A DNA stretch of 64,000 bases, from positions 1-64,000 of IMG/VR virus record IMGVR_UViG_3300005337_000003, one strand, 5' to 3'. The stretch comes from a virus. Positions 18,241 through 37,900 of the stretch are shown here, in pieces. The notes under the pieces were generated by a model, which was not told the DNA's origin, searched no databases, and worked only from the letters and a program-made list of their open reading frames with translations. The first letter of the stretch is position 1, and each line of letters begins with the position of its first letter. Made by a program: the position numbers and the translations under genes.

Positions 18241-21200
18241 TTAATGATCGCTCATTTGAGCATTCCGGATCGCAATCACCGGATCCAGGTTTGATGAGCT
18301 GAGCCCTAATATCTTACCCAGGTGATTCCACAACTTTAAACTGTCTTCGTCTTGCCACCTGTAGGCGCCAATCCGCTTTTGATAACGGGCTTTTTCATTA
18401 CCGGTAGTCATATACCAAAGATCATTAATTACATCCGAGCCGGAAGATAAAGTTGGGCCGAATACGACAGCCTTTATATCAAGCATGTCTTTGTAGTTGC
18501 CGAGTCCTAATCCGGGCCATGGCAAAAACTGATCATTCTCTGTCTTAAACGCGAGGAGTTGATAGAGCGCATGATTTGACACCCAGCCTCCAAAGGAGAA
18601 CGGCCTGCCCTTATCGTCGATTGTTATACCCGGGATCTGAAGAGCATCTGACTTAGCTTTTAGCTTCTTGAAACGGTCCTTGTCCTCCGGGTCAAAACCA
18701 AAAAGGTATGGGATCAGTAATGAGTAGATAAGCATCAGCGTACCAAGTTCCGTCATGACACGCATAAATGCAGCTTTTTCTTCAGCCTTCATATACGGCA
18801 GATTCTTGCCTCCGTTGCGAATGCTATCCCACAGCAGGTTGGCAAATGTAATGTACCAGCCCTGTTTTGTATTGCTCAGCGAGTAATCATACCGGTTCAC
18901 CGCGAACCTGTTCACCAGCATGCTGGTCAGAAAGCGGCGAAAAAAGCTGATATACCTAAAGGCTAAATAGCGGTCTGCCTCCGGCCTGAATTCCCGAGAC
19001 ATAGCACCGTTCAAGTTGTCAGATACCCTCTGAAACTCCAGGCGCTTCTCAATGAATTTCTTACCAACGACCTGGTTACCATCCTTATCATAGGTAATGC
19101 CCCATTCGGCAGGTACTGATGCTTTTGTCTGGATCTTACCATCCTTATTGATCTCCCAGGCATCCTTATACATGATGTTTGATCCATCGGACAAGAGAAT
19201 ACGTTGGGTGCGTAGCATACCGTATAATACCTGGATATTGGATTGCAGCTGCGTGGTGCGGCGGAAATCATTCATGCGACCCAGTATTCCCCAGGTATAA
19301 TCTTTTTGCACCGTCCTGGTGAGAGATTCGCCGTAACTATGGGCAAAACGGTCCCGCTCAGGGTCGAATATTTCCACCATCTGGAAGCCTAGTGATTTAG
19401 GCTCTGACTTGTAGATCTCTGTCATTATCTCAAATGTCACCTGGGAGGCATCATACTCGGCAGCGATAAAGTCCTTCCAGCGCATATGCTTGCCTGCAGA
19501 GGATTCGATCATCCCCTGAAACTTGGCCGACACAGCATTCTTAATCGCAGACGGAATATTAAGATTCAAGAAAGCGCCGGAAGCTGATTTGAACAGCAAG
19601 TTAGAGAAGTTCTGAATAGCCGGATTATCCGAGCCCCAGCCCTTATTCTCCACACCCTCCAGCATCCGTTCCACCAGGTTGTTCACGGCCTTGGCCCTCA
19701 TGTACTGGTCTTTCCTGCGGTTAGGATTAACGATCGTGTTATTCTTGAGCATGCGCTGGTAAAGCGGGGAATTGCGTTCATTGTTGAGTACCTGCTGGGT
19801 AGCACGGGCAACCGGGCTGATCTTGTGTAAAGTTCTGCTGCGCTCAGCTGAGTATGAATACCTAAGCATCGTATAGATCGCATCCGTTGACACCTCATCG
19901 ACAGGTATATCACTCAAGCCGGATATAGGAATACCTGAAGTATCGTCATCAAACATATCGACCGTGATCAGCTGCTTTGTGTCCTCGAAATTAAATCCAT
20001 GATCCCAGGAATCCCTAGCTTTCTGCCAGAAGGTCTTGGCCTTGTAGATCAGACGCTTCAGCAAGTTTCCTGATTGTAGCTTTTCGACCCCCCTTTTTTC
20101 GTACCGTGGCATATCCATCCAGAGCTTCTGACGGTCGGGTAAACCTACCTGATTTTCCACATGCAGCTGCTTCATTTTCTCAAGTAACTTAAAGGTGGAC
20201 GGATCAGACTGCTTTAGCCTTTCGTAGTCCTTATTGATGTAGCGGTCATCCGGTGCGCCTTGGGCTGCGGTGCGAGGTAACCAACGGCCCCGGTTATCGG
20301 CATTAACCCCAACCTCCTGCTTTACCCGGTAGGAGTCCTTGAGTAGCTTCTTGTAGTAACGCATGGAAGGAACCGCCTTGATGGGTACCGCATTACCATT
20401 TAAGTCTTTTACCGAGGAGTGCTCATAATGCTTATCCTGCAGGGGACGGATCACACTCCAGGCAGCCGTCCGGCGCCAGGTAGTATAATCCTCCGCTGTT
20501 TCATAGGAGAAGCTGTTTTTAGATGTGTGATTGCGTATGAACCAATCCTCAAAATCAGGACTAGCTCTCATTAATTGCTGAATATCAATATCGTTAATAA
20601 CCGTAAGATCCTCTGCTTCCAATTCGTATTTGTTGAATATACTGTAGACAACCGTAGGGTCCATAGCTGCCAGCAGATCGTTGAATGTATCCACATAGGC
20701 GTCAGTCGGCAGTTTATACTGGAGCTCGTCCAGCTCGTTGAATAGTGAGAATAGCTCCGCCCGTTCCACACTATCCAGCCCCATCGATCGCTGTTTATCA
20801 AATAACCTGGAAAGTCGTAGTTGTTCGTCGTTAGTTAGACCTGAACGGGCATTCTTAGCTAGTAACGTATGCATCTCATCGGATTCCTGTTTAGTGAGCC
20901 CTGAGAGGTTATTTAGCTGTTCCCGGGCTGCTGATAGCCGTTCCTCGGCATCGTGGATACGTTGCTGCTTTTCCGGAGTCATTTCGGTGCCCTGGGGTTG
21001 GCCTGATTCATCCCGGCTGGCCTTTAGTAGATCCTGGATCAACTTGGAATCTTCCTCTACCTTTTCTGTTAATTTGCCCTGGTTAGGAATACGTTTCATG
21101 AGCTCCGCGATATCCTCATAGATCTCTTTACGCTCCTGCCAGAACTCATCTGTTACCTTGATACGCGTGTTCTTATCCAGCCAGCGATCCATTAATTCCT

Positions 21201-24200
21201 GGAAGCGGGGGTCTCCTGCTTTTTTACCTTCGTCGAGCAGTTTCTGTTCATAAGCCGAATAGGCAGCCTGGAAAGCCCCAGGAATTTCCAGGGATTCATA
21301 CATATCGCGGCTGGCCTCCTGGTATTGCTGGATGCGCTCCGCGATATCGAATTCACGGCCAATTTTTGGCTGGCCCACAGCGTCGTATAAAGAGGACAAC
21401 TGTCTTAGTTCCCGCTGGATGGCCTCAGCTTGCTCTATTGCTTCCAACACATCTTCCGAAGATGCTGCAGCTATCTGACCGCTGACCTGGTTAAGCCGGT
21501 CGTATACGTCATTCATGGCCATACGGGCCTCTTTGCCTATCTCGTCCTTTTTGAAAAGATCCTGGGCTTTATAAAACTCTTCTGTGAATTCAGTGTGAAA
21601 GTATTTACGCCTATGCTGCTCCCATTCGGACTGGGTATCGGCCAGGGTTTGTTTATCCTGTAATGATCCTGTCTCGTGGTATTTTAGGGATGCCTGCCGG
21701 ATCTTGCTTAAGTATTGAGCACGAGCCAGATCAGCCCCCTGGAATTGGTTTAGGAATCTCCAGACCTTTTTCTCAGTCAATTCGCCGGTATTCTCATCCA
21801 CCACACCAACAGTCTCGATAAAACCTAGGCGTTCCCCGGATTCAGCTGGCTTATTCATATTGATATCAGCGTCGTCCAGCAAGGGCTTAAGCTGGATGGC
21901 CATTTCATTGTATCGTGCCTGGGCCTTTACTTCCATTTTGGAATACTCCTGCAACATATAAGTAGCCAATCCCCCCACTACAGGATCAGGGTTATAGGCA
22001 TAGCTTTCCAGGAATGCACCAGCCATATTCACATCCTTTAGTTTACCCTGTAATGCCTGGGATAGTTTCTCAGGTGTAAGCTTTTCCTCAGCATATTCCT
22101 TCTCAGCCTCCGCTATGACTTTGGCTGAGGCCTTCTTGGCTTTCAGCTCATTGATCCGGGATTGCCATTTCTGATCGATATTTTCGGCAGTGCCTTTGAT
22201 GGTGCTCCAGAGAGCCTTATGTGTAGCTTTCTCGTAAAATTTATCGAGCAAACTCTCGGTACGACGGATATTATCATTTATGGAGCTTATTGCCTTGATA
22301 TTTTTTACACCATTGGCTTCCAGCGTCTCATAAGCCTGATTAACAAAACCTCCCCAATAATTCATTACCTTCTGGAAATATAAAGCCTTCTGCACATTAT
22401 CAGGATCATTAATATCCTTCAATATGTTCTGCATTGCCTCGTGGATCTGTTGTGTCATATTATCAACAGTTCCCAGGCTATTAACAGCAGCCACTACACG
22501 TTGACGTGTCAGCTCCACTTCATCCTCTAAATCCTTAGTATGTTCAAGCAAAAGTGTCTGGTAGGAAGATAGGTTGGATTTTATTGTTTCCAAGGCCCCG
22601 GTTTTTAGGCGATTTTTGAGTATATCTGCCAGTTCTCCGAGGTCGGGCCGATGAGATACATTATAAAGGCCCTTGGCTGCTTTTTTATAGAAATCATTAA
22701 CTAGGTCTTCTATTTCCTTCGCATTCGCGTTCTGGGCTACAAATCCTCTTAAAGAACGATCGTAATCTTCCTTGTATGTGACCATTTCCTTGTCGCTCAT
22801 TATCTCTGGATCCAGTTGGAATACTCCCCCTTCTTTTAATATATCACTTAGCTGCTCTAAGGTAGTGGACGGATTTATAGTCTCAGCTTTGATACCTGAG
22901 CCAAATACTTTCCTTAATACTTTACGGATCGCATACAGCAGGTTATCGATAAATTTCCTAAAGGCGTCAGTAGATTCAAGGCCTTGATTGTTTAGATCCT
23001 GGATGGCCGTTAGGCCCCTTACAAGCGCTTCTTCCTTGAAGAGGTCAGAGCTTTCATCCAGGTTCGGGTAGAGTTGCCTCATGTCTTCCAGAATCTTAGC
23101 GCCTTCCTGGGTGGTAGTTAGTTTGGCGTACAGATTATCAAATAATTCACGGTTCTGTTTTGAGATAGCCCGTAGCAGGGGGTGTACAAATTCGTGTAGT
23201 ACGTCATCAGGTGTTATGGCGCTGCCGACAAAATAGACCGAATCCTTGTAGAAGAAGGCGCTCTGTCCATTCCAGGGATTTGGACTGCCTTTAGTAATAT
23301 CTGCAGCCTCTTCGGGCGTGATTGTCTGGTAGTCTACTCCCAGCTGTGTCTTTAAAGCATCCGCATATTTACGGATCATTTCCTGGGAGTAATTCTTCCT
23401 TGTATCTTCTGCAGATAGATAGGTATCTGATCTGCCCAGGTTTTTGAAAGCTATAAATTCTGTTGCGTGTTTGGGATCTATTAATACCTCATTCCAGTCG
23501 TTACCATGCTCATCTGTGGTTTTTGTGGGTTTGAAGCCTTGTTTTTTCAGGATATTGGTTATGGTTTCGTCGTAGAATTTATAAATAGGCCTTAAAGCAG
23601 CAAATCCTTCAGTTTCTGCTCTCTTTAATTCTAGTTTAATTTGGTTTATTTCATTAAGTACATTTTTTTTCTCTTGTTGTAAAACTAATTGAGCTTCTTC
23701 CTTTGTAGGTTTTATAGCTATAAGCTCATCTGTATAACCTAATCTATAAACTCTCCATTCTTTAATGAAATTTCCATTTTCATCTAGTGCGGGTTCATCT
23801 GCTAAGAATCCTTCTTTTGTACCTTCTTTTATATCAAATACTACATTATTTAAATTATTAAGTCGATCTTCTTTATGTCTTCTAAATTCTTCTAATGTGG
23901 TATGTCCTTCAATTTTACTAATAGTGTCTCCCAATGGAAATAGAACCTTCTCATAACCCTTCTTAGCAGAATCTTGCATAATAGATTTAATAAAGAATGA
24001 TACCCAGTTATTGTCTTTGTTTAGAAGTTGAAGAAAATTATTTTTCTCATGATTAATTTCTGGACCTAATCCTTTCCTTTCATTTGTTAAAAAATCAATA
24101 TTTCTACCTTTCTGAAATAGATCAGATTGTACTTCAAGTATTCTACGACTCTTAGAATTAGATATTAATTCATTTTTTCCTACAAATCTATTCTCATCAG

Positions 24201-25284
24201 GATAGTGAGCTTGTTCATCACTTCTAAACCATCCCATGCCCTCAGAAGTAGAAAATCCGGCATGCCCCTGAATACTCGGAGTAATTCCGGGAATCTTAAT
24301 TTCATTCTCAGTGTAGTTAATTCCCCCAAGCACCGTCATGTTAGCATAGTTGTCACTATTCACCTCTATAGAGCTTATGTTGAATTCTTCTCTGGCCTGT
24401 GCTATTGCATCATCTAATTTCATACCCCCCTCTCCTAGCTCTTCCACTCGCTTTTGATAGCTAATCATTACTCCAAGTCCATGGGCCTCGGGACCTGGCA
24501 GGCTTTTTTTGACTGTATTTATCTCAATAGTATAACTATAGTCAGCTAGTAAGCTGGTAAGCAAGTTCTCCCTATTGTATGGATTTTCCACCTGCAGGCT
24601 TTTGAGGATTTCCACTTGTTCTTTGGGAATTTGCAGATCCTGATTAAGCTTGTTCCAGAACACATCATCCCGCCACTGGTTCTTGTCTGCTTTTTTGAAC
24701 CAGTCTATTGCCTGCTGGGAGGCTAATATAAATGAAGCCTTCAGCCCGTATTTAATAGCTTTTTCGTTTTTATATGCAACAAACTCCGGACTTATACTGG
24801 TAGGCGAAGGTAGGCGATTAGCATCATAATTAGCTGCTTGTTGACGTTCCTGCTTGGCAGCTGTGTCCAGCCTACCTTTCTCCTGCCATACCTTCCAGGT
24901 AAAATTATCTGACTGGCCTACCTGCTTCCTTTCAAAGCGCAGCACCTTATTGATATCTTTCCTGGCGTACTCGTTGTTTTTTATCCCGATCTGCTTCATG
25001 ATGATCTGCGCCTGGGCATCGGATATCTGGGATTTAGGGACAGCGCGGCCTAGTTCTTTGAAGAATTGTGCTTTAGTAATTGGTATAATCCTGGAAGCTA
25101 AATCAGAACTAGTAATAACCACAGGGCCTATCAGACCGTAAAATTCATCAGGCGTAGGAAAACGGTCAGTTATCCCCTTATGAGTTTGCCATACACCTAT
25201 CTTGGCAGCTACAATGGCAGGATGCAAATCAAACTGATCTGCCAGTTTAATTACCTCGAAGTGGTTTATATTTATACAATTCAT
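18241..25284 (-). CDS. Giant virion cargo protein (2347 aa) with a zincin-like HEFVH motif and a C-terminal hydrophobic helix
   Basis: Uninterrupted ORF; lies after the vRNAP as in crAss-like phages; HEFVH at 23182-23196; hydrophobic LGTLMLIYSLLIPYLFG near the C-terminus. Confidence 0.85.
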   Translation of the reverse strand: MNCININHFEVIKLADQFDLHPAIVAAKIGVWQTHKGITDRFPTPDEFYGLIGPVVITSSDLASRIIPITKAQFFKELGRAVPKSQISDAQAQIIMKQIGIKNNEYARKDINKVLRFERKQVGQSDNFTWKVWQEKGRLDTAAKQERQQAANYDANRLPSPTSISPEFVAYKNEKAIKYGLKASFILASQQAIDWFKKADKNQWRDDVFWNKLNQDLQIPKEQVEILKSLQVENPYNRENLLTSLLADYSYTIEINTVKKSLPGPEAHGLGVMISYQKRVEELGEGGMKLDDAIAQAREEFNISSIEVNSDNYANMTVLGGINYTENEIKIPGITPSIQGHAGFSTSEGMGWFRSDEQAHYPDENRFVGKNELISNSKSRRILEVQSDLFQKGRNIDFLTNERKGLGPEINHEKNNFLQLLNKDNNWVSFFIKSIMQDSAKKGYEKVLFPLGDTISKIEGHTTLEEFRRHKEDRLNNLNNVVFDIKEGTKEGFLADEPALDENGNFIKEWRVYRLGYTDELIAIKPTKEEAQLVLQQEKKNVLNEINQIKLELKRAETEGFAALRPIYKFYDETITNILKKQGFKPTKTTDEHGNDWNEVLIDPKHATEFIAFKNLGRSDTYLSAEDTRKNYSQEMIRKYADALKTQLGVDYQTITPEEAADITKGSPNPWNGQSAFFYKDSVYFVGSAITPDDVLHEFVHPLLRAISKQNRELFDNLYAKLTTTQEGAKILEDMRQLYPNLDESSDLFKEEALVRGLTAIQDLNNQGLESTDAFRKFIDNLLYAIRKVLRKVFGSGIKAETINPSTTLEQLSDILKEGGVFQLDPEIMSDKEMVTYKEDYDRSLRGFVAQNANAKEIEDLVNDFYKKAAKGLYNVSHRPDLGELADILKNRLKTGALETIKSNLSSYQTLLLEHTKDLEDEVELTRQRVVAAVNSLGTVDNMTQQIHEAMQNILKDINDPDNVQKALYFQKVMNYWGGFVNQAYETLEANGVKNIKAISSINDNIRRTESLLDKFYEKATHKALWSTIKGTAENIDQKWQSRINELKAKKASAKVIAEAEKEYAEEKLTPEKLSQALQGKLKDVNMAGAFLESYAYNPDPVVGGLATYMLQEYSKMEVKAQARYNEMAIQLKPLLDDADINMNKPAESGERLGFIETVGVVDENTGELTEKKVWRFLNQFQGADLARAQYLSKIRQASLKYHETGSLQDKQTLADTQSEWEQHRRKYFHTEFTEEFYKAQDLFKKDEIGKEARMAMNDVYDRLNQVSGQIAAASSEDVLEAIEQAEAIQRELRQLSSLYDAVGQPKIGREFDIAERIQQYQEASRDMYESLEIPGAFQAAYSAYEQKLLDEGKKAGDPRFQELMDRWLDKNTRIKVTDEFWQERKEIYEDIAELMKRIPNQGKLTEKVEEDSKLIQDLLKASRDESGQPQGTEMTPEKQQRIHDAEERLSAAREQLNNLSGLTKQESDEMHTLLAKNARSGLTNDEQLRLSRLFDKQRSMGLDSVERAELFSLFNELDELQYKLPTDAYVDTFNDLLAAMDPTVVYSIFNKYELEAEDLTVINDIDIQQLMRASPDFEDWFIRNHTSKNSFSYETAEDYTTWRRTAAWSVIRPLQDKHYEHSSVKDLNGNAVPIKAVPSMRYYKKLLKDSYRVKQEVGVNADNRGRWLPRTAAQGAPDDRYINKDYERLKQSDPSTFKLLEKMKQLHVENQVGLPDRQKLWMDMPRYEKRGVEKLQSGNLLKRLIYKAKTFWQKARDSWDHGFNFEDTKQLITVDMFDDDTSGIPISGLSDIPVDEVSTDAIYTMLRYSYSAERSRTLHKISPVARATQQVLNNERNSPLYQRMLKNNTIVNPNRRKDQYMRAKAVNNLVERMLEGVENKGWGSDNPAIQNFSNLLFKSASGAFLNLNIPSAIKNAVSAKFQGMIESSAGKHMRWKDFIAAEYDASQVTFEIMTEIYKSEPKSLGFQMVEIFDPERDRFAHSYGESLTRTVQKDYTWGILGRMNDFRRTTQLQSNIQVLYGMLRTQRILLSDGSNIMYKDAWEINKDGKIQTKASVPAEWGITYDKDGNQVVGKKFIEKRLEFQRVSDNLNGAMSREFRPEADRYLAFRYISFFRRFLTSMLVNRFAVNRYDYSLSNTKQGWYITFANLLWDSIRNGGKNLPYMKAEEKAAFMRVMTELGTLMLIYSLLIPYLFGFDPEDKDRFKKLKAKSDALQIPGITIDDKGRPFSFGGWVSNHALYQLLAFKTENDQFLPWPGLGLGNYKDMLDIKAVVFGPTLSSGSDVINDLWYMTTGNEKARYQKRIGAYRWQDEDSLKLWNHLGKILGLSSSNLDPVIAIRNAQMSDH

Positions 25285-25637
25285 TTTAAAAATCTCAACT
25301 TGTACTCAACACCATAAATAAACTCAAGGATATTATCAATCAGTTGCTGAATATATCCTTCTGTTTGGGTGGATCTATATTCCTTTATAGCAATGCATTG
25401 TTTACGTAAATATCCCACCATGTCAATGCCTTCCTGTATCGGTATACTTTTATAGCCTTTGATTATGTCATACTGGCCTTGATATGCTTCACAAAAAGCA
25501 TCTCGAAGTTCTGGCATACCTTTATATAGCTCATCGAGAGCTGCATGCTGAGCAAATGAAGTTGTTTGGAGGTGCGCAATATGCCCCATTACTTCTATTT
25601 CGAATAATGCGCTTACGAATTCACTGGTGCTTTTCAT
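25281..25637 (-). CDS. Ferritin/Dps-like four-helix protein
   Basis: HIAHLQTTSFAQHAALDELY...DAFCEAYQG...YKLRFL pattern. Confidence 0.7.
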   Translation of the reverse strand: MKSTSEFVSALFEIEVMGHIAHLQTTSFAQHAALDELYKGMPELRDAFCEAYQGQYDIIKGYKSIPIQEGIDMVGYLRKQCIAIKEYRSTQTEGYIQQLIDNILEFIYGVEYKLRFLK

Positions 25638-25638
25638 G

Positions 25639-28600
25639 TTATAAACAGTCTATTAGTTGTTTAGTTTCTTCCTCGGAAAGAGAGTCGAATTGTTCTTTGG
25701 TTAGGTCCGGATATTTTTGAAGAATGGCAGTGTGGTGCCTTTCCCATAAGTCAACCTCATTGTCGGCTGAATCTGAATATTCCAATTCGGGTAATTCCAA
25801 CTGTTGATCTTCCGTGCCCAATTTTTCCCTATCTATCCTATCATTTATCATATAATCCTTGAACCGGTTACGGTCCGAAATATCTGAATTAACGACCAGG
25901 AACTTACCGGCAAATTCCGCCAGGTATTTAGCGTCAATAGTTTTACCCAACCTTTGCACATCCTCCCCTATCAACCTCTGGATCCTTTGTACCGGGATCA
26001 CCCGGGCAAATGAGAAAGGATTACGGGTATTAGGCCCTGATTGCATATACAAGTATAGTGGTAATTTTTTAAAGAATGTGGCAATATAATCCGCATCTTT
26101 CTGATCAATGCCTGAAATTTTCAACAATTCATTAGAATTAGCCAACTGCTTGAGGTTCTGGTGGAATCTATCTACCTCGGCTGAAGATAACTTGGTTGTT
26201 GATAGCATTAAGTTAGTTAGTCCAGACGAAGTAGACTGCTTAATATTACCCAGTATAGAAAACTGGGTCTTCAACTGAGGGTATTTAAACAACAACGCTT
26301 CATATTTAGCAGCCACATTCCTTGGCGCTTTAAGTAATTGATAGGGACTGAATATATCAAACAAGGCCTGCTCATTCAGCCATTCCTTATAACTCTTCTC
26401 ACGCATCCGGATATCAAAATCCACATCGGTTTCGTCAGATAACCTAATATTATCAGTGGCCTTATTCTGCGACAGGATATCCTGGTAATCGAAATTATCA
26501 ATTATCGAATCCATCGGATACATGCCTTTGAGTTCATCCCGTTTATCAACAAAGTAAGCACGTTCATTATCGCTGGAGAATTCAACGCCCTCAGCATCCT
26601 CTACTGAAGCAATAGCCTTGTCATAACCTCGTAACTTTTGTTGGAAGATATAATAGATCAGGTCGCTCTTGAAAACCCGGGCGGTCTGCACCGGATCCCC
26701 ACCAAATAGCCCTTTAGCTTCGCTATCCTGCATAAAGTTAAAGAGAAACTTATTCAGCTCTGGATTGTTAAGCAGTGTCATCAATCTTCCGAAGACATCC
26801 GTTACGAATTTGTGCACGTAGAATGGCCCTATTGCTGAGTTATTAAGGATTGATTTAACGTATTTGTCAGAAATTAACGTGTTTTGCTCGGCATCCTCTA
26901 TTTCCTGGGTCTTAGCTGCGAATTCAAACACAGTCTGTGCTTTGTTAGTGTCTACATTAAAGGCCCGCTGCAATTTATCCAATCCTGCCACTATATTCTC
27001 AATTTCCAGGAAATGTAGGAATACAGCCAGGTCCGGATTACGGACAACAGCTTTCTTAATAGGCTTATCAAAGTCTTTAACTCCTTCAGGATCCTGCCTG
27101 TATTCGTCCAGTGCAGCATTCAGCGCCTGTGATAGCGGTAACTTACCTCCCTTATCCGGATGGGTAAGCAACGTGAACTTACGGTGCAGGAATTTAACCT
27201 CTTCGGGGGATCCGGCATTTTGGAATAATCCCAGAACCCGCCGTTTGAATTCCTCGGGATCAATGTCGTTTTTGATATCGTCCTGGAGCGCACGAGCACC
27301 TCCAAAGCTCCTAAGAGGCTCGGCAGCTTTAGTTTCACCAGAAGCAACCTGATTACCCATTAAGTCAGTAATATCGGTAATGCCTTCGGTGTAGATCAAC
27401 GCCAGCTCTGCCAGATCACCCGGCTTTGGCTTAATGATTCCGAATCTGCGCAGTATATTACGCTGGGCTGGGCGTCGATAATTCCTGTAATTGCCCGCAG
27501 CTCCAAATATTCCACCTACAGGGCTTTTTTGCAGTCGTTGCTGTTTAACATATTCCTGGATGATCGGGTGCCTGAGAAAGGTTACGGCCTTTTTCAGGGG
27601 GACTCCGGATCTAACCAGAAACAGCAAAACCGGGGCTAGTTCCTTATTGCCCTGTATATAGCTGATCCAGTCATCCTTCTCCACATCAACCCAGCCATTG
27701 ATCAGCTGGCTGACCACCTCCGATATGGAGTTGCCATCAGTGTCTTTAAGTCCGGAAAGCGATATACCTCCAGGTGTGGAATTGTGAGGCATAAGTATGG
27801 TAGCACGACCTGCATCAAAGCTTGGTGCCAATTCCAGGCCGATCGCTTGCGACACGGCATTGAATGTATTATTAATAGCACCAATCCCAAGGGCATCCTT
27901 ACCCACAGAGTTAGCTTGCTGCACCTCGATACTACGCAAGGGCTCATACATTCGGGTGCCCTGGTTATTATGCTTCTGATCCCCGCGTATTCCCTCAGCG
28001 ATGGGCTTGGCTATATCCACGTCATTAGGTCGTACCAGGTTTTCAAAATTGTCAGGCCTTTCCATCATGGCCCGCATGGTCTGGATAATGTTATTCTCCA
28101 GCACGGGACTGCCATTCAGTTCCGAATAATACTCATCAAAAGGCTTTTTGCCCTGATCGCGCAATATGTCACGGATCTCATCATCAGTATAATCCAGATC
28201 CCAGTTAGCCCCAAATATATCGCCTAATAACTTATCGGCGGCAGCATCTTTCTTCCACTGTAATTTACCCTGGCTATTGATTAATTCGTCCTTCTGGATA
28301 GCTGTTTTTATAATCTCATCATGCAGCTGCTTGGCTTTTTTCTTAGAAATAGCTGAGGCGTATGTAGGCTCACCATCTACCATACGGATATGAGGCATAA
28401 GCATCGGCAGTTTGTCATAATCAAAGTCACCTCCGGTCTTGGCTGTGATCTCTGGCGGGGCCAGCAGTATATTACCTACATATTCAGGCAAAAACTCATA
28501 AACCTCTACAAAATCGGTGGAGTTAGGTCCCTGGGTGGGGACACGGGCACCCACCATCGTTACCATCTGCCGGTGATTATTCTCATCCAGCCATGCCTCA

Positions 28601-31600
28601 TCCTTGAGCAATATATTCAAGGCATCAAGCCGGGACATTTTCTGGCTTTTTGATTTCTCAATAACGGAAGGGAGTTGCATGAGTTGTTTAAAGTCTCCCT
28701 GGATCGCTATCTTGATCTTGGCTGCGGTTATCTTGCCGTTACGGATATGATAGGTAGGCAGATCGTTAGTGCCATACCTGGCTACCTGTTCGGCAGTGGG
28801 TTTATCGAACTTACGAGGCTCTGAATAAGCGAAGGCTTTATTTTCGAAAAGAGTGGAGGGAACAAGCACAAATTGTTCACCCTTAACCTTTGGCGTTACC
28901 AGGCGCTTATTGGCCAGTGCCACTATGGTCTTCTCAATTATCTCAGCAGAAGGTGACACATCCAACGGATTTTTTATGGTGTCCCGGCGGATGGTTTGGA
29001 TATAGTTCCATTCATGCTCCCCCACATCGGAACGTTGCAGCTCATCAGATATCAAAGCCAATAACTTATCCAGCTTAATATCCTTGGTTGATCCCCCATC
29101 CTTAACTCCCAATTCGTAAAGCAATTCCTGCTTTTTATAAGCCACAAACTTATCCATGGCGCCTATATAGGCACGGTAATTTTTATAGTTGTCTGAAGCC
29201 TTAAGCTTCTGCTCTTCCGTCAGACTATTCCAATCCGATCCTTTATAATCCACTGGTATCCCCTGATCGAACATGCCAACAGATACCAATTTACGCAGCT
29301 GGGAGATCAGCGTTACCTTTCCCTTATATTTAGGTGAGGCTTTCACCTGGTACTTTAAAAAGTCAGTATGGATTAAATTAGGCACAAACGGCTTGTCTGA
29401 TAAAGTACGGGTTTGCACATCGCTATATAACTGCTGGGGCCCTGGCCACTCGGATATAGTAGATATCTTGGAGCCGGATACATAGGTGAGGTAATCGATA
29501 CCCTCCGACATCATCTTATGATGTAGCGCGTCCATATTTTCGGAAAGTCCAGGTATAATGGGCATCATGGCGAACTTGTGCAGTGCAGTCATCGGCACCG
29601 GCTGGCCCAGGAGCGGGCCAGCATACCCCATCTTGAATACCGGTGGGAACTGCCCCTTATAGGCAGGCTTATCTCCCCGGACAAAAGACTGGAAAAGCCC
29701 TTCCTGCTCATCGGACCATTCACCCAGGCCTTTTGCCAGGATCCTATAGGTATCAAAAGCCACTAAACAAGAAGCGTCCGTCTCATTGACCTTAGAGTAC
29801 GCTTTAGCAGTAGAATCGGCACTAGTGGCTTTAGTATATTGATCAAGATAGGCCGATACCGACTTTACATCGTCCACGACGGCAGTCCTGAAGATGCTAT
29901 TAAATGGCTCCGGTTTTAGACCTTGTGAAGTTGCCAGGGGTTTGCCAACCTTGTTATTTATGTAGTTCACGAAAGTTTGATCAGAGGGCATTACATCCCC
30001 TGGGGAAGCCATCGAGGCATTACGCTTGAAGAAATCACTGTACTGGGCAACATCCCCATAGATAACTATCATCTCCTCAAAGTGGTGGATCCAGTTATTG
30101 GCAACAAAGGAAGATATAACTGCGGCCCTGGCTTGTTCTGGCGTTATAGTTTTACCGTCGAGGGTTGCCAGTCCCTGCAGCTGATTGATCAGCGTGGGAC
30201 TTATAAAGCTGCCACCAAGCTCTGCGCTGCGGTTATTAACCTGCTGTACCAGACCAGAGAAGTATTCCACAATTTCCCTGGTTATAATGTCTTCCAGTTT
30301 GGGATTTATTTTACCTTCCAGTAGTGCCTGTTTTGTTTGATCGCTTAGAACCCCTGCAAAGGAATGGAACTGTGTTGCCCTTTCCAGGTACTTAAAATCC
30401 GTCTGTTTTAATTCTCCGGAATCCAGAAGCTTCTTAACGTAATTGATCCGGTCCAGTTCACCTGACAGGTAGTTGCGCAGGATTTCCACGTATTTGAATA
30501 CGCCCGACACATAACCGTTGGATTCTGGAATGAATGATTCGGTATCAATATAAAGCCGTGGATTCTTTGCACCAGTCTTATAATTACTCAGCGTTACAGA
30601 AAAAGATGCACTCTTGCCCGCATGTCGGGTAAGCTCGGGCGTAAATCCCATGACCTGCTGGTGAATATCAGAGATCAGGCGTGTCAGCTCGTCAGAGCCT
30701 GCCTGTGATAGGCCTTGTGTAAATCTGCCATTGATTGAAGGGATGGTCCCTGATAAGTTATCAACCTGCATGGTATTACCCGGATACCTCGGGCCATCAG
30801 GCCTGTTCCTATCATATAGAGCATTGATCCAAATTGATCTATCGGTGTAATAATTATAGGGTCGTCCCGGTTGATCCGGTGTGGGACTAAAGTGAGCTGT
30901 CTGCGGCTGGCTTAATAAGTTATTAAAGTTACCGGTACGATTAAATAGCGACACGATCTGTGTGATGGAACTTTGCTGATTATACTCGGATTGCTGCTCC
31001 CCTTCAGCATTCGCTACCATGAAATCCGAATACCTGCCGCTGTATTGACTCTCAAGCTGCAGTATCTTACCATAGTTTCCTTTAGGCCCTACCTGGCCGG
31101 TAACTCCCATCTCGGAGTTGTGTCGTGTAAATTGGCCTATACCCCGGATTATAAAGTTTCGCTCCTGTAGGTTACGGATATTATCGTAAATACCACTCAA
31201 CCGGATGTTTCCGGATTTTACTTCTTTTTCCAGCTGACTTTTGATCACTGGCAGATTGCTCAACGACATTCCTATATCCTGAAGGAACTCAAAAGGGTTG
31301 GCGTTTACTTCCTGTATGGTTTGGTATTTATCCAATAATGACTTTGCATCCAGGTAATTCCCGTGGATATCGTTACGCATGAATGGGCCTCCTGATTTGA
31401 AAAACTCATTCTTCCAGGTACGGTCTATTTTCTTGATCTCGGATATCGCGTTACCTATCCGGATATCATAGTTCGACTCACCGGTATTGTCATCGCGCTG
31501 CTCAGCAATCTCTGTCTGACGGAGCAGGATCCGGTATTTATTGGCACTGTGGTAGAATTTAAGCCACAATCCAGACTCCTTATCGGTCTGACCCTCATAC

Positions 31601-34600
31601 GATAGCGGTCCCAGCTTTCTCAACAGCTGGTCAATCGGCGGGTAGTTGATGCGTTCAGATTTGAGCCTTTGGTACATGTCCTCAAGACCTGTGCTGTTCT
31701 GAACGGTCTGCATGATATATGCCCAAGATTGCCTAAAATCCACCAGCGTGGGAAAGCCCAGCGCATTAGGCTGCACCTGCCGGTTAACATCTGGCTGATA
31801 TAAGCTGCTGACAATGGCTTTGATCTCCTCGGATACCAGGTCGTAAATAATGGTATCATTAGACTTATTTTCAAAGAAATTTTTACCTGCCATCTCCCGG
31901 GCCTCATGCTCCACATCATCAGATACCTCTGACTGGAATTGTGAGACAGCGTCCTTAATACGACTACTGATCAACTGTGATCGCTGCAGATGATACCCAA
32001 TAACGCCTTTATCTTTAAGGGAGAGTTCCGGGTGGGTCGCATCCCCAAAGTTATCGACAGCATATTGCAGCGTCTGCAGCGTCTTCTGTAAATCAGCACT
32101 TGGATTAACTTTAAACTGCTCCTGTACATCTGATAGCCTCTCTTCGAACTTTAGCTGGGCGTACCGATACAAACTGGCAACACCTTTCAGCTTAGACAAT
32201 ATCACCGCAGTGTAGGAAGATGTATATTGGGCCTGCAGGTTTTCCAACTCTTCTTTTTCTTCCGGTGTCAGATTTGGCTTCTGCTCAAGATCTCGTTTAC
32301 GGTTACCTGCCTGTAGATTGGCCGCATTCATCTCATCCAAGGCTTCGGAGAACAACGCATCCACACTGTCTGATATTAAGTCGGAGGTTTCAAAGCTCAG
32401 CTCTATTCCGCCCTTTACCGGCTGCATGGCTTTATTGAGCGTATTGAATTCAGCATTTTCAGCTGAGAAGCTATAGGTGGCCAAATCCCCTACTCGCAAT
32501 CTCTGGTAAAGTTCAGCAACTTTTTGGTTAACCCGCTCGTCTATCACGGATTCGCGAACCGTTGCCGATCCGAATAATTCTTTTAAAAAGTTCAGGATGC
32601 GGCGGAATAAAGTATTCCGTTTTGGTGCCTTATCCATCACTAACTTTCCACCGGATAACATATAAGCCCTGAAATCCTCTGCCAGATATTCCTCCAACTG
32701 CTTATTAGTAGCGTCGGAGAATTTAACGGTATTGCCCTGGAAGTCAATGAATGTTCCGGACTTAGTTCTCACCTCACGATATAAGCCCTCCCTATCTTCC
32801 CGAGGTAATAGTCCCTGAGTGAACCCGTGCCATGCCTCATGGTATAAATCTGACGCATCGGCGCCCTTGTATAATTTTACACAGTTAATGGCCCAATTGG
32901 CAATTACATTCGAATCTTCCGCGTTGACTTTTTCGAACATTGCCTGGAATGGAAAATGTTTTGAGAGTGGGCTTTGACTGTACCATTTCTCAGCCTCTTC
33001 GATCTGCGCCTCCATGGCCTTGATGCTCCCTTGGCCTGCGATCTTGTTCCATTTGTCCGGATTTTGTCCCTTAAGGGATGCCAGGTAATCCTTGGCAGAC
33101 ATTTTTGGTTTATCATATTCAGGCCTGATAAAACCGTTTTCATCAAACAGTGTGGGTTGTGACACCTCAACCTTAGGTTTATCAATAATATCCACATTAG
33201 CGGCTGGGCTGATGGTGAATTCCAGATTAGAACCAGCGCTCTGCAACCCTCCTTGGGAATCTACAGCATATGGTACAGTAAAATTATCTTGGATAAAACC
33301 AAAATACTTCCTGGTGGTTGTCGTTAAGGTGTTGCCGTTAATCTCGAAATCCTCATAAGAGTTACTATTAAACAGTGTCTTATTAATGCTTAACTTGATA
33401 GTATCTATCCTGTAATATTTTACACTTCCGTCAGGTTGAGGAAACTCATACACATCATCGAACTGAGCAGTTTCCAGGTTTGTCACTTTGTTGCTACGCC
33501 CCCCATACATCGCCTGGGCCTTAGCCGGTGTTAATTCCTCCGCAGGAATACGGCGGGTAAACATGGTACGCAATGCCTGACCCATCTCCTCCTTGCTGGC
33601 GTAACTCTGTGGTTGGCCCATCCGGTAGACCACAAGTTCACCACCAACAACCCGTATGTCAAGCGCTTTTGGATCAGTATATAAAAACTGACGGAGTAAC
33701 TTAAGCTTATTCTCTGGTGTAACTGCAAACGTCTGGCCTCCCCTGGTGAATGTAAGGTCAGTAGTGATAAGAGATACTAGTTTATTCACCATCTCGGGGG
33801 TAAACTCTTTCCGGTTAACAGATACAGACATCTCAGTGCCTGGAAGATCGAAATAGTAGACGTTGGGCCTTTGGTTCCTGGCCGGGATGCCCCGGTAAAA
33901 ATTAATAGGCGCTACGATCTTGAGGGCTGATACTGGTGAGGCTCCCTTCTTTATCGGAGGTACGTAGCGGATTTGGCCTCCTTTTATATCAACCTGCAGG
34001 GATTTCCCTGTCTGGTGGATATACTTGCGGGCGTCGGCCAATAGTTTTAATTTGCGGGTAGTGACGGCCAGTGCCTGCTCATACGTCATGCCTTGAGATT
34101 CCAGCTGTTTGAGCTGTCGCAGATCGGTTTCGAGCAAGGGCCTGCCTTCCACAGGATTGCGGAAGTTGTAGTGTATGAGCGATCCTTCGTCAGATTTTAC
34201 CAAATCAGCTGTAAATCGGATAGGTTTTCCTTCCGGGTCCGTTACCAGCAGCACAATGCCTTTATTGGCATTTTCCAATTTGGTGGGATCAGCTTGTATT
34301 TCAGCCTGGGTATCCGGGTAAAAATCCTCCACTTTAAAGTCTTTGGTTAGCGACATGGTAAGCCTTACCGGTACACCGTTGATAATGCTTGAGCCGTCCG
34401 GCTGCACGTTTTTTATTATCTGTGTCTTAGCGTCAGCATAGATTTTCATGCCGGGCCGGATCTGGCCGGTATTGATATCAGTATCCATCACTAAGTCCGA
34501 GAGGATCAACGCGGGGTTAGCCTTAAACTCCGGGACTTTATCTACCGGGATTTCTTGCTGTGCTGGAGGATTGATTTGCGAATCCTTAATAATATTCTCC

Positions 34601-34938
34601 TTAACAACGTTGGCCTCTTGAGTCTGTGTATTGAAGCCGTTAACGTACTCTTGCACCTTATCGAAATTTTCAAAGGCAGCTTCCTTTCCGGAAACGACTG
34701 CGGCGGAAGAGGCAAGCTTGGAGAATACATCCCGGTTGATTCCCATCACGGCGCGGATGTTTGCAGGTAGCAGTCCAACATATGTCATTGCCAATACCGG
34801 ATCACCGGTCTTGGTGCGGATCAAATCATGGAACTTTCTGGCATAATCGTCAAACTGAAAATCTTTGGCCTTGTTAAGGTCGATAGCTACTTTGCCGAAA
34901 AGCAGTCGCTGCTGTTGGGGAGTTAATGTACAATTCAT
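25639..34938 (-). CDS. Virion-packaged DNA-dependent RNA polymerase (crAss-like, 3099 aa)
   Basis: Catalytic loop GGDFDYDK at 28414-28428, preceded by RVPTQG; zincin HEAWH at 32827-32841; true start is probably ATG 34938 (ATGA overlap), not TTG 34944. Confidence 0.92.
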   Translation of the reverse strand: MNCTLTPQQQRLLFGKVAIDLNKAKDFQFDDYARKFHDLIRTKTGDPVLAMTYVGLLPANIRAVMGINRDVFSKLASSAAVVSGKEAAFENFDKVQEYVNGFNTQTQEANVVKENIIKDSQINPPAQQEIPVDKVPEFKANPALILSDLVMDTDINTGQIRPGMKIYADAKTQIIKNVQPDGSSIINGVPVRLTMSLTKDFKVEDFYPDTQAEIQADPTKLENANKGIVLLVTDPEGKPIRFTADLVKSDEGSLIHYNFRNPVEGRPLLETDLRQLKQLESQGMTYEQALAVTTRKLKLLADARKYIHQTGKSLQVDIKGGQIRYVPPIKKGASPVSALKIVAPINFYRGIPARNQRPNVYYFDLPGTEMSVSVNRKEFTPEMVNKLVSLITTDLTFTRGGQTFAVTPENKLKLLRQFLYTDPKALDIRVVGGELVVYRMGQPQSYASKEEMGQALRTMFTRRIPAEELTPAKAQAMYGGRSNKVTNLETAQFDDVYEFPQPDGSVKYYRIDTIKLSINKTLFNSNSYEDFEINGNTLTTTTRKYFGFIQDNFTVPYAVDSQGGLQSAGSNLEFTISPAANVDIIDKPKVEVSQPTLFDENGFIRPEYDKPKMSAKDYLASLKGQNPDKWNKIAGQGSIKAMEAQIEEAEKWYSQSPLSKHFPFQAMFEKVNAEDSNVIANWAINCVKLYKGADASDLYHEAWHGFTQGLLPREDREGLYREVRTKSGTFIDFQGNTVKFSDATNKQLEEYLAEDFRAYMLSGGKLVMDKAPKRNTLFRRILNFLKELFGSATVRESVIDERVNQKVAELYQRLRVGDLATYSFSAENAEFNTLNKAMQPVKGGIELSFETSDLISDSVDALFSEALDEMNAANLQAGNRKRDLEQKPNLTPEEKEELENLQAQYTSSYTAVILSKLKGVASLYRYAQLKFEERLSDVQEQFKVNPSADLQKTLQTLQYAVDNFGDATHPELSLKDKGVIGYHLQRSQLISSRIKDAVSQFQSEVSDDVEHEAREMAGKNFFENKSNDTIIYDLVSEEIKAIVSSLYQPDVNRQVQPNALGFPTLVDFRQSWAYIMQTVQNSTGLEDMYQRLKSERINYPPIDQLLRKLGPLSYEGQTDKESGLWLKFYHSANKYRILLRQTEIAEQRDDNTGESNYDIRIGNAISEIKKIDRTWKNEFFKSGGPFMRNDIHGNYLDAKSLLDKYQTIQEVNANPFEFLQDIGMSLSNLPVIKSQLEKEVKSGNIRLSGIYDNIRNLQERNFIIRGIGQFTRHNSEMGVTGQVGPKGNYGKILQLESQYSGRYSDFMVANAEGEQQSEYNQQSSITQIVSLFNRTGNFNNLLSQPQTAHFSPTPDQPGRPYNYYTDRSIWINALYDRNRPDGPRYPGNTMQVDNLSGTIPSINGRFTQGLSQAGSDELTRLISDIHQQVMGFTPELTRHAGKSASFSVTLSNYKTGAKNPRLYIDTESFIPESNGYVSGVFKYVEILRNYLSGELDRINYVKKLLDSGELKQTDFKYLERATQFHSFAGVLSDQTKQALLEGKINPKLEDIITREIVEYFSGLVQQVNNRSAELGGSFISPTLINQLQGLATLDGKTITPEQARAAVISSFVANNWIHHFEEMIVIYGDVAQYSDFFKRNASMASPGDVMPSDQTFVNYINNKVGKPLATSQGLKPEPFNSIFRTAVVDDVKSVSAYLDQYTKATSADSTAKAYSKVNETDASCLVAFDTYRILAKGLGEWSDEQEGLFQSFVRGDKPAYKGQFPPVFKMGYAGPLLGQPVPMTALHKFAMMPIIPGLSENMDALHHKMMSEGIDYLTYVSGSKISTISEWPGPQQLYSDVQTRTLSDKPFVPNLIHTDFLKYQVKASPKYKGKVTLISQLRKLVSVGMFDQGIPVDYKGSDWNSLTEEQKLKASDNYKNYRAYIGAMDKFVAYKKQELLYELGVKDGGSTKDIKLDKLLALISDELQRSDVGEHEWNYIQTIRRDTIKNPLDVSPSAEIIEKTIVALANKRLVTPKVKGEQFVLVPSTLFENKAFAYSEPRKFDKPTAEQVARYGTNDLPTYHIRNGKITAAKIKIAIQGDFKQLMQLPSVIEKSKSQKMSRLDALNILLKDEAWLDENNHRQMVTMVGARVPTQGPNSTDFVEVYEFLPEYVGNILLAPPEITAKTGGDFDYDKLPMLMPHIRMVDGEPTYASAISKKKAKQLHDEIIKTAIQKDELINSQGKLQWKKDAAADKLLGDIFGANWDLDYTDDEIRDILRDQGKKPFDEYYSELNGSPVLENNIIQTMRAMMERPDNFENLVRPNDVDIAKPIAEGIRGDQKHNNQGTRMYEPLRSIEVQQANSVGKDALGIGAINNTFNAVSQAIGLELAPSFDAGRATILMPHNSTPGGISLSGLKDTDGNSISEVVSQLINGWVDVEKDDWISYIQGNKELAPVLLFLVRSGVPLKKAVTFLRHPIIQEYVKQQRLQKSPVGGIFGAAGNYRNYRRPAQRNILRRFGIIKPKPGDLAELALIYTEGITDITDLMGNQVASGETKAAEPLRSFGGARALQDDIKNDIDPEEFKRRVLGLFQNAGSPEEVKFLHRKFTLLTHPDKGGKLPLSQALNAALDEYRQDPEGVKDFDKPIKKAVVRNPDLAVFLHFLEIENIVAGLDKLQRAFNVDTNKAQTVFEFAAKTQEIEDAEQNTLISDKYVKSILNNSAIGPFYVHKFVTDVFGRLMTLLNNPELNKFLFNFMQDSEAKGLFGGDPVQTARVFKSDLIYYIFQQKLRGYDKAIASVEDAEGVEFSSDNERAYFVDKRDELKGMYPMDSIIDNFDYQDILSQNKATDNIRLSDETDVDFDIRMREKSYKEWLNEQALFDIFSPYQLLKAPRNVAAKYEALLFKYPQLKTQFSILGNIKQSTSSGLTNLMLSTTKLSSAEVDRFHQNLKQLANSNELLKISGIDQKDADYIATFFKKLPLYLYMQSGPNTRNPFSFARVIPVQRIQRLIGEDVQRLGKTIDAKYLAEFAGKFLVVNSDISDRNRFKDYMINDRIDREKLGTEDQQLELPELEYSDSADNEVDLWERHHTAILQKYPDLTKEQFDSLSEEETKQLIDCL

Positions 34939-37900
34939 ACGCAACCTAGTGTTTCTTCGAACTCTTTCTCAAATTTCTCAGGATCAGCCAATGCCTCTTC
35001 CATTGTCTTCTCAAGCACCTGACGGCTACTATTAATGAAATTAGTCACCTGTTCACTACTCTGAGTTGCCAGTTCTTTTTCCTTATCTGTTGGCTGCGTA
35101 TCCTGTGCTGCTTCGGATTGTATACCCAAAACAGTATCCTTTAAGTCTTTTTCTTCCACGGTTATCTTGAGGTTTTTATTAAGGAGATCAATGGTTAATT
35201 TTTTACCTGTATTTTGCGACACCATACCTTTGTCATGCTCTTTGTTAGTCAGCTGCACTACAGTACCTACTGGCAGATTAGACATACTGATAACATTGTG
35301 AAATTCCTGACGACGCGCTTCCAGGCCTTTGAGTATTTTATTAGCGGTTAAATTCATCCGCTTACGGGTCCTGCGGTCAAACAGCCTAAACATGGTCTCA
35401 AATTCAGCTTTAAGCGCGTCCAGTTCGTCCAGGTTCTTAACACCAGGAATGCGCTCCAATACATCCTCAGCCTGGACATCCTCCTTGGTTTTACCTTGTT
35501 CCTGTGCAACTTCTGGCTGCTCGACTTGTTCTTCAGTAACTACCTCTTCCTCCGGCTTGGTAACATTGAGATAATTATCTACAATGTCTTTAAATTTTTG
35601 ATATCTCGGATCCCTGGCATCTATGGCTTGTTTGGCATTAATATCAAAAAAGCGCTCAGGCACAGCCTTGTCATTAATCAGCTTATCTACACTCTGCGGA
35701 GATAGTACAAATCCCCTATCATACAAAGTCTGTAAGATCGAATTGTCTTCAGTGGATTTCTGAGCTAATTCGATACCCTTCTTGATTATATCGCCTTTAG
35801 AATTATAAAGATCCGTAAATGCACTATTAAGTCTTTCATAATAATTTAAAAATCCTTGAGGATCAGCCAGCGTATTTACTGTTTCAGTTGTAATAACGTT
35901 CTCTATTCCCAACTCATGCAGATCCAGCAATTCATCAAATGATTTACGTAATTCCACATTAGACACGCTGGAAGATGGGTTGAGGGATTTAAGGTAGTTT
36001 GAGTATGATTTGAACAGTTTGTTTTGATCTGTCCGTTTCTGTTTGTCCAGAGATAGCGCCTTTTTTGCTTCCGGCGATAGTCCTTCCAGGTCCTGGTGCA
36101 GGTATAGACCTGTTAATGTGGTATTAAAATCCTCCAGGTGTTTTAAGGTATTTTTTTTGGCCTTAAGCTCCTCGCGGTTATTATTGTATTCCAGTACCTC
36201 GATCTCATCTTTTAGTAGACCTATTTCCTTTTGAAGCTGTATAGGGCTTGTCAGGGCATTAAAATAATTGGAAGGAATCTTATTGGTTCCGGCCTGGGCC
36301 AGCAGGCCGGAAGCGATGTTTTTGATCCTTGTTGCATTGTCCTCGACTTTGGCACTATCGAATATCGCCCTCGACTTGGCTTGTTCCCAGGCTGAATACC
36401 CTATGGCTTCCCGGGTATATTCCGGGGTATCCTTGTGGTACATTGTAGGACTGAAAGGGTTCTGTAGCCTGAGATTCCACTCCTCGTATTTTTGTTTGAC
36501 AGTCTCGGCCCGGGAGATCAGCGAATCGACCTTTGAAAGAATCTCCTGCCCGTCCCGACCGAATGTTTCCTTTATGGCCTCTGGCGTCATGCTTCGGATA
36601 TCGCGCAGTTTATCTAAGAACAGATCATAGGATCCGGTATCAAGAGCCAGTTTGGTATTGCTTGCCAAATTCTCAAATTCGTTATCCAACCACTTCTTCT
36701 TATCATTCTCATCAAGAGCTTCGTATTGGCCTTTTACCGCTTCAGCGCTGGTAGTGTAGTTGATATCGCGGGAGGAAAAGAATCTCAAAGGGTCTTTATA
36801 ATACTCATTAAGAGTTGCAAGGGTCTTCTGTGTATAGTCATTCTTGGTCTTACGATAGCCTGCTATTTTTTCAATACCTGCACTTACTGGTGATACCAAG
36901 CCCCCCATGAAAAATCCGGAGGCAAACGTTTCAAATCCCTTGCCGCTGAGCTGATCCACGGTGTTCTTGGCTAAGGCATCCCACATGCTGTCATTTGTAT
37001 ATTCTCCCCTACCGTGGTCTAGTCCGCTCCTGGTCTTGGAGCCGTATAAATTGGCATAGTAATCCACAGCGGTACCTGCCGTGATGTCCTGCAACGACTC
37101 CTGCAACCCTTCCGAAAGGTTGCCCCTGAAGTATTTAACAGCGCCTATTCCCCAGTTTTTAGGCTTGAACGCTGCGCGGGTCCGATTCATAAAAGTGGCC
37201 TCAACAAGCTTGTCCCCCTGCCTCATGAACCGGGCTCCATTACGCAGCGTATATTCTGTTGGTTGGGCAAATGATTTCAGCAACGGATCAAACGTCAGCT
37301 TATTGGTGAGGAATATCACCGGAATGTTAGCAATCATGTTAGATGTGCCGGCATCCTTGGCATTCTCTTTTAACGTAGCATATTCCTGGTCATCCGGATA
37401 ACGACCACCGTGCTCTTCACGGAACTTGGCCAGCATCCGCTCCTCGGCATCCCGCTGGGCTGCTGCTCCTTCCATACGGGCCTCCGATACGGTAAAATTG
37501 GCTGCCTGTATGTCTTGGTAAAGGGCGCCGGCTGTCTTATAGGAAGCCACGGCTGCATTCACACTGCCTGATTTGCTGGCCTGATATATATCCTTAGCGG
37601 CTTCAAACGTATTGGCCAGGGGCGTAATACTTTTAGCTGCATTCCAGAGCTTCTCTGCAGCTGAGTAATTATTGATTTCCTTCAGGGTGCCTAATGCCGC
37701 CTCGTATTTGCCCAGGTCTTTGGTGAACTTGCCTACTTGTAAAGCTCCCTGCGTACCCTTGAAGGCACTCCCTATTCCTGAGGTAAGATAATTTTCCAGC
37801 ACCAGTTCACCTATCATACCTACAGTGTAGCCTGAATTACTCATAAGGTTAGAGGCAAAACCGCTCACACCTCCCCTGGTTGATGAACCTACGGCATTAT

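Follow-up and report, generated by a model that had tools for sequence, protein, structure and literature searches.

Tim14/Pam18 uses its J-domain to activate Hsp70 where a channel that threads unfolded protein opens out, and the J-domain of the polyomavirus T antigens is considered to work in cis, on complexes that the protein carrying it has bound. In phages, J-domain proteins that use the host DnaK include Rki (gene 057w) of the T4-like phage RB43 (PMC3486835) and the DnaJ proteins of jumbo phages (PMC7824862); both are stand-alone small proteins made after infection and not parts of virion proteins. A survey of polyvalent proteins makes no mention of DnaJ, the J domain or Hsp70 (Iyer et al., 2017). 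Crassviruses and N4-like phages inject RNA polymerases which, according to recent structural papers, must unfold and refold. The gp66 polymerase of phage phi14:2 is packaged, translocated into the cell and transcribes the early genes; in its crystals it was self-inhibited, a state from which it must be released once inside the cell. For crAss001, the cargo proteins, RNA polymerase proteins included, are described as partially unfolding to pass the constrictions of the tail and then refolding in the cytoplasm, while the structural paper on the N4 virion RNA polymerase (vRNAP) calls the manner of unfolding and refolding an open question. Chaperones are mentioned in neither of these two papers. 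Here, we describe a J-domain located inside a giant vRNAP that is encoded in the window, by which we mean the whole stretch of 64,000 nucleotides analysed (positions 1 to 64,000, the first 64 kb, of the 129,798-bp virus record IMGVR_UViG_3300005337_000003, which has direct terminal repeats).

The J-domain is encoded on the minus strand within a long open reading frame (ORF), and it is delimited by the following features (aa, amino acids; AF2, AlphaFold2):

25639..34944, minus strand: gene of the giant vRNAP, from the ORF list and translation; 3,101 aa from the TTG at 34944

27094..27258, minus strand: J-domain core, aa 2563-2617, with helix I at 2563-2576, helix II at 2580-2594, the HPD loop and helix III at 2602-2617 in the AF2 model

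27100-27210, minus strand: peptide SPEEVKFLHRKFTLLTHPDKGGKLPLSQALNAALDEY, aa 2579-2615, from the translation of ORF 25639-34944

27154..27162, minus strand: HPD tripeptide, aa 2595-2597, codons cat-ccg-gat at 27162-27154; invariant in all eight known carriers

A sequence-only reading of the window had placed an HPD tripeptide at 27154-27162, with its His at about aa 2593 and about 420 aa after the catalytic loop of the polymerase. Translation confirmed this placement: the HPD lies 420 aa downstream of the catalytic DFDYD, and its His is aa 2593 when counted from the ATG at 34938 and aa 2595 when counted from the TTG at 34944. The peptide quoted in that reading was also present exactly. The HPD tripeptide occurs a single time in the 3,101 aa, and a degenerate DNA pattern covering helix II and HPDK matched once in the window and in none of 100 shuffles; the same pattern had no match in the metagenome, genome and viral contig collections. 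When a 120-aa stretch was compared with all PDB sequences using phmmer, the best match was the Tim14/Pam18 J-domain (2GUZ_A, 27.6 bits, E 2.5e-5), and 17 of the 18 listed matches were J-domains, among them those of auxilin, DNAJB8, polyomavirus large T antigen (E 0.093), DNAJB6, DNAJC5, DNAJB12, HSP40 and DNAJA1. A profile of the whole protein likewise found, besides gp66, nearly only J-domain chains in the PDB, and these matched at identical profile columns. Furthermore, an exhaustive phmmer search over 1.84 billion (1.84e9) representatives reached P0031 (E 5.4e-6, 41% identity over 46 aa), which a Pfam DnaJ score of 89.5 bits marks as a true DnaJ protein, and hhalign of the alignment against P0031 gave an E-value of 8.1e-5. 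Two other sequences from the exhaustive search, P0030 and P0033, were rejected as false positives caused by repeats or low complexity. Among the language-model neighbours, 18 of 30 fell in clusters with a DnaJ annotation, and in the best such cluster this annotation is found on only 15% of the members. NCBIfam gave no match, and PHROGs gave just two weak families of unknown function. The similarity to proven J-domains is therefore significant, and the single HPD in 3,101 aa, the 0 of 100 shuffles and the E-value against solved J-domains together place the HPD stretch beyond chance.

The predicted structure agrees with the sequence matches. The AF2 model of a 73-aa core, obtained with an 8-sequence alignment, had a mean pLDDT (the per-residue confidence score of the model) of 79.7, with helices at model residues 8-21, 25-39 and 47-62 and the HPD at 40-42, within the loop that connects the last two of them. 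The modelled core thus corresponds to a helical domain of about 70 aa with a predicted antiparallel hairpin of helices II and III. Foldseek against the PDB ranked Tim14 first (probability 1.00, template modelling score 0.59/0.61), followed by the J-domain of the murine polyomavirus T antigen, and in a viral library most of the top 50 matches were named T-antigen, DnaJ or J-domain and came from polyomaviruses, phages and giant viruses. The claim of a helix II-HPD-helix III J-domain, which the sequence-only reading had made from the letters, was thus borne out by the PDB and exhaustive phmmer searches, by the AF2 model and by Foldseek, and so was its assignment to the compact, viral HPDKGG type, with Tim14 and the polyomavirus T antigens as top structural matches. 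We consider it very likely that the stretch is a genuine J-domain consisting of helix I, helix II, the HPD loop and helix III. It is of the compact HPDKGG type, J-only (class III), and is Tim14/Pam18- and T-antigen-like.

Both by sequence and by predicted fold, the closest J-domain is that of Tim14/Pam18 (DNAJC19-type, PDB 2GUZ), with which it shares the HRK...HPDKGG of helix II and the loop, the IN.A.D pattern of helix III and a compact arrangement of three helices without helix IV. In contrast to Tim14, which is small, membrane-anchored, paired with Tim16 and trans-acting, this J-domain lies within the very protein that is translocated, a chain of 3,101 aa; we know of no Tim16-like partner for it. 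Since the vRNAP lacks the small membrane-anchored architecture, it is not a Tim14/Pam18 member, and the resemblance is that of the J-domain alone and concerns its possible mode of action. The closest architectural analogue is the polyomavirus large/small T antigen (PDB 1FAF), in which a viral HPDKGG J-domain is fused to a large multifunctional enzyme and which prevailed among the matches in the viral library; there, however, the J-domain is N-terminal, the virus infects eukaryotes, the partner is Hsc70 and the carrier is a helicase. By mode of action, the vRNAP may also be likened to the HopI1-type effectors, which are delivered unfolded through a narrow conduit and whose J-domain engages the Hsp70 of the recipient, although HopI1 is a type III secretion effector that acts on plant Hsp70.

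Alignment of the vRNAP with its homologues defined the limits of the inserted segment and the conserved sequence that follows it:

27037..27354, minus strand: whole inserted module (N-linker, J-domain, C-linker), aa 2531-2636, about 105 aa, from a MAFFT alignment of 26 homologues

26995..27021, minus strand: conserved block FLHFLEIEN, aa 2642-2650, at which the common vRNAP sequence resumes after the insertion; invariant columns from F2642 to E2649

The homologue set comprised 26 full-length proteins of 2,825-4,532 aa, and the alignment was anchored on the catalytic motif. The module is situated in a variable loop, roughly 100 residues after the segment aligned to the gp66 trigger loop. Twenty of the homologues lack the whole module and have instead a short loop between the conserved blocks '...GI..DF' and 'FLHFLEIEN', which identifies the module as a discrete insertion of about 105 aa; gp66 of phi14:2, homologous to the vRNAP, likewise has but a short loop where the module sits. 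On both sides of the J core the sequence varies and the pLDDT was below 50, so the J-domain is probably tethered on flexible linkers. Among the eight carriers, the identity of the J core ranged from 33 to 75%, and its only invariant columns were K2584, K2589, H2595, P2596, D2597, K2598, G2600, N2609 and D2613, while position 2588 was R or K in all of them. The HPD falls between the second and third helices, and helix II carries the basic residues for the Hsp70 nucleotide-binding domain (by hand mapping). We take K2584, position 2588 and K2589 to be the equivalents of DnaJ R22, K26 and R27, as mapped by hand from the HPD register. In the solved complex of DnaK with a J-domain (PDB 5NRO), the basic residues of helix II and the HPD contact DnaK. 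This pattern of invariance, with HPDK and the helix-II lysines among its few columns, indicates that selection acted for Hsp70 engagement and not for a mere spacer, and the module is kept under selection where it is present. No Hsp70 gene was found in the phage genome, and the DnaJ-like site described here was the only one; any partner of the J-domain must therefore be the host DnaK, and, judging from these conserved residues, the J-domain probably engages it.

The nature of the carrier was established from its motifs and homology:

28414..28428, minus strand: catalytic motif DFDYD, aa 2173-2177, aligned to DFDID 1361-1365 of gp66

27661..27711, minus strand: aa 2412-2428, SQLINGWVDVEKDDWIS, homologous to the gp66 trigger loop in its C-terminal half, from a hidden Markov model alignment to about residues 1618-1636 of 6VR4_A

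A profile of six orthologues matched the DNA-dependent RNA polymerase gp66 of phi14:2 (6VR4_A) with an E-value of 7.1e-32 over gp66 residues 1331-1786, an alignment that takes in the catalytic motif and the trigger-loop segment, for which the gp66 paper gives the limits 1598-1636. In addition, tblastn with the vRNAP core matched g066 of phi14:2 and the RNA polymerase subunit of crAssphage. With a DxDxD motif and with homology across the double-psi beta-barrel, bridge-helix and trigger-loop region, the ORF product belongs, as judged from these alignments, to the phi14:2 gp66 family of crAss-like two-barrel virion RNA polymerases. The sequence-only reading had already named the carrier as a virion RNA polymerase and had said correctly that gp66 was crystallised self-inhibited, as is stated in the gp66 paper. 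By analogy with gp66 and crAss001, we infer that virions contain the vRNAP and deliver it to the host cell; its gene lies in a block of giant genes that resembles the cargo block of crassviruses. According to the gp66 paper, all crAss-like RNA polymerases have Ile or Val at position 4 of the catalytic motif. Tyr occupies this position here, and DFDYD, or DFDFD in some relatives, is found throughout the clade of the 17 closest homologues; the more distant vRNAP homologues have Ile or Val. The true start of the gene is likely the ATG at 34938, which gives 3,099 aa, the same length as the database copy P0002. This ATG overlaps the stop codon of the upstream 1,118-aa gene as ATGA (...GGT TGC GTA TGA / ATG AAT TGT), and the overlap suggests translational coupling with the upstream gene and a 3,099-aa product.

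The survey of related polymerases for the insertion yielded eight known carriers, two of them fragments and all from uncultured material. The HPD was found at the same place in five full-length homologues (P0003-P0007), and the exhaustive search added the two fragments with an HPD (P0029 and P0032). A maximum-likelihood tree built on the polymerase core placed every carrier inside one clade of 16 (support 100/100), but not as one group within it; well-supported branches forced at least three gains or losses, and none of the bootstrap trees united the carriers. Such patchy presence among close relatives indicates that the module is accessory and no core requirement of the polymerase. The identities of the J core and the polymerase core were out of step: they were 60% and 50%, respectively, for the pair P0001-P0003, and 35% and 57% for the pair P0001-P0006, which hints at exchange of the module, the 55 columns compared being few. 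A recent horizontal acquisition was unsupported by composition, as the GC content of the insertion is 48.4% and the mean of the gene is 45.8% (standard deviation 3.2). A tblastn search of 50,697 phage records with a 300-aa stretch around the module detected nothing. The search for related loci in IMG/VR found none with the J region and, with alignment A2, one locus (L002) without a J-domain; a search for shorter homologous proteins found none. Full-text literature searches found no described fusion of a vRNAP with a J-domain, in line with the sequence-only reading, which knew of none, and no J-domain in crAss-like phages.

Related giant vRNAPs carry other accessory domains, namely Kinase-PolyVal, NADAR, a PIF1-like helicase, a zeta-toxin-like kinase and RNase H (differing among P0004, P0005, P0008, P0011, P0018, P0023, P0024 and P0026), so the polymerase seems to be a carrier of injected modules in the manner of polyvalent proteins. 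The vRNAP of the window itself has no Pfam domain besides the J-like site. Accessory domains of this kind, which are typical of polyvalent injected proteins, would also suit a host-directed effector, that is, an injected J-domain that captures or redirects DnaK and thereby acts on the sigma-32 heat-shock circuit or blunts a DnaK-dependent host response. The patchy presence of the module is typical of accessory conflict modules, the injected effector HopI1 has a J-domain that engages host Hsp70, and in RB43 the free-standing J-protein Rki both binds DnaK and stabilises sigma-32 (PMC3486835). However, the other accessory domains that we located are terminal fusions, whereas the J module is an internal insertion on linkers, and insertion in the body of the polymerase favours an action on the carrier itself. 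DnaK is abundant in host cells, and only a few polymerase copies would reach any one cell (a crAss001 virion carries about 6), which makes titration of DnaK implausible. We regard the effector role as quite improbable.

We favour, with moderate confidence, the view that the J-domain works through the host DnaK on its own carrier. The sequence-only reading had likewise proposed that the ejected polymerase recruits DnaK in cis for refolding, for being pulled in or for relief of autoinhibition, a proposal that we regard as reasonable. The tethered J-domain would dock on ATP-bound host DnaK and trigger ATP hydrolysis, and DnaK would then clamp nearby unfolded segments of the same polypeptide in cis. 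The likeliest moment would be just after ejection, when the polymerase has been squeezed, partly unfolded, through the tail. Help from DnaK could lead to refolding and to release from the self-inhibited state before early-gene transcription, and DnaK bound at the exit could also ratchet the rest of the chain inward. By analogy with gp66 and crAss001, we tentatively propose that post-ejection refolding or entry may be the main role. In a stronger and unlikely version of this proposal, the ejected polymerase would be the substrate of its own import motor: the small, fast-folding J-domain would emerge from the phage channel and fire DnaK onto the adjoining unfolded chain, and Hsp70 would ratchet the giant protein, possibly with the DNA end behind it, inward and refold it. 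If true, the mitochondrial import motor of Tim14/Pam18 and mtHsp70 would have a bacterial-virus counterpart, built in cis.

Since any folded J-domain is active, the newly made polymerase would attract DnaK as well. Late in infection, the J-domain could bring DnaK to the nascent 340-kDa polymerase for folding, or for holding it in a self-inhibited or loosely folded form that is competent for packaging. The gp66 paper proposes a self-inhibited form before packaging that is kept away from transcription, a loose fold within the capsid has been proposed for the N4 vRNAP, and the DnaJ proteins of jumbo phages are predicted to aid folding and assembly (PMC7824862). Against such a role, folding and, presumably, packaging succeed in twenty similarly sized homologues that lack the module. 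Nothing in the sequence tells a late role from a post-ejection role, and the two can coexist; as an account of what the module does, we consider the late role rather unlikely.

Several observations weigh against a J-domain that acts through DnaK on its own carrier. Pfam DnaJ (PF00226) was the sole match in the region of the window protein and the top match at the same site in two orthologues, but the scores of 16.2 bits (window protein), 18.3 bits (P0006) and 20.2 bits (P0007) are all under the gathering cut-off of 27.8 bits, and P0003-P0005, P0029 and P0032 gave no Pfam match; the sub-threshold scores are probably the reason why the J-domain lacks annotation. Every Foldseek E-value was above 0.001, the predicted fold has no helix IV, and in VIA-align the Z-scores of J-domains were just 4.4-5.5, not above the generic helical matches, which were all that a wide search returned (Z about 7). 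The fold evidence is therefore consistent and not decisive, and the case is carried by the sequence evidence. Of the 26 full-length homologues, 20 lack the module, close relatives among them, which makes it dispensable for polymerase function as such. Finally, some 2,590 residues precede the J-domain in the chain; ejection from N to C was proposed for gp45 of crAss001, and if the vRNAP were ejected in this direction, the J-domain would enter late and could help to pull only the last 500 or so residues. The sub-threshold Pfam scores, the Z-scores within the helical background and the dispensability of the module in relatives would also fit a helical spacer that is J-like by descent or by chance and whose Hsp70 activity was lost or never present. 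Inactive J-like domains of the Pam16/Tim16 type typically lack the HPD, yet the HPD is kept here, HPDK and the helix-II lysines are among the few invariant positions in eight sequences that fall to 33% identity, and the matches to true J-domains are significant in sequence. A spacer without a working J-domain is, in our judgement, very improbable, and we retain the reading of a J-domain that would act on its own polymerase through the host DnaK.

Other features of the vRNAP gene and its surroundings were also recorded. An HExxH motif (LYHEAWHGFTQG) is located at vRNAP aa 702-706 (32827-32841, minus strand), within a block that is invariant in six orthologues, and it looks like the signature of a zinc metallopeptidase; it is of interest because the gp66 paper raises the question whether activation of the polymerase needs proteolysis. 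A 261-aa stretch around this motif had no significant Pfam or PDB sequence match. Three giant genes flank the vRNAP gene on the minus strand, at 18241-25284, 34935-38291 and 38266-41331, and encode 2,347, 1,118 and 1,021 aa, respectively; none had a PHROG match, and their position suggests that they are counterparts of the RNA polymerase-associated or cargo proteins of crassviruses. Directly downstream of the vRNAP gene, a 118-aa gene (25281-25637, minus strand), which overlaps the next giant gene by 4 nt, matched DUF5856 (68 bits) and phrog_858, 'starvation-inducible transcriptional regulator' (83.5 bits). A 162-aa ORF (26864-27352, plus strand) runs antisense to the region of the J-domain and is very probably no gene but a by-product of the long minus-strand gene.

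The injected RNA polymerases are proteins of 250-380 kDa, and the channels are narrower than the folded enzymes. A J-domain hard-wired in a vRNAP would be the first sequence-level pointer to host Hsp70 in this step of unfolding and refolding. The finding also indicates that a true J-domain can lie below the Pfam threshold inside giant phage proteins and hence stay unannotated, and it extends the known accessory domains of injected phage proteins by a module for chaperone recruitment. What is new is a known domain in a new, mechanistically suggestive place.

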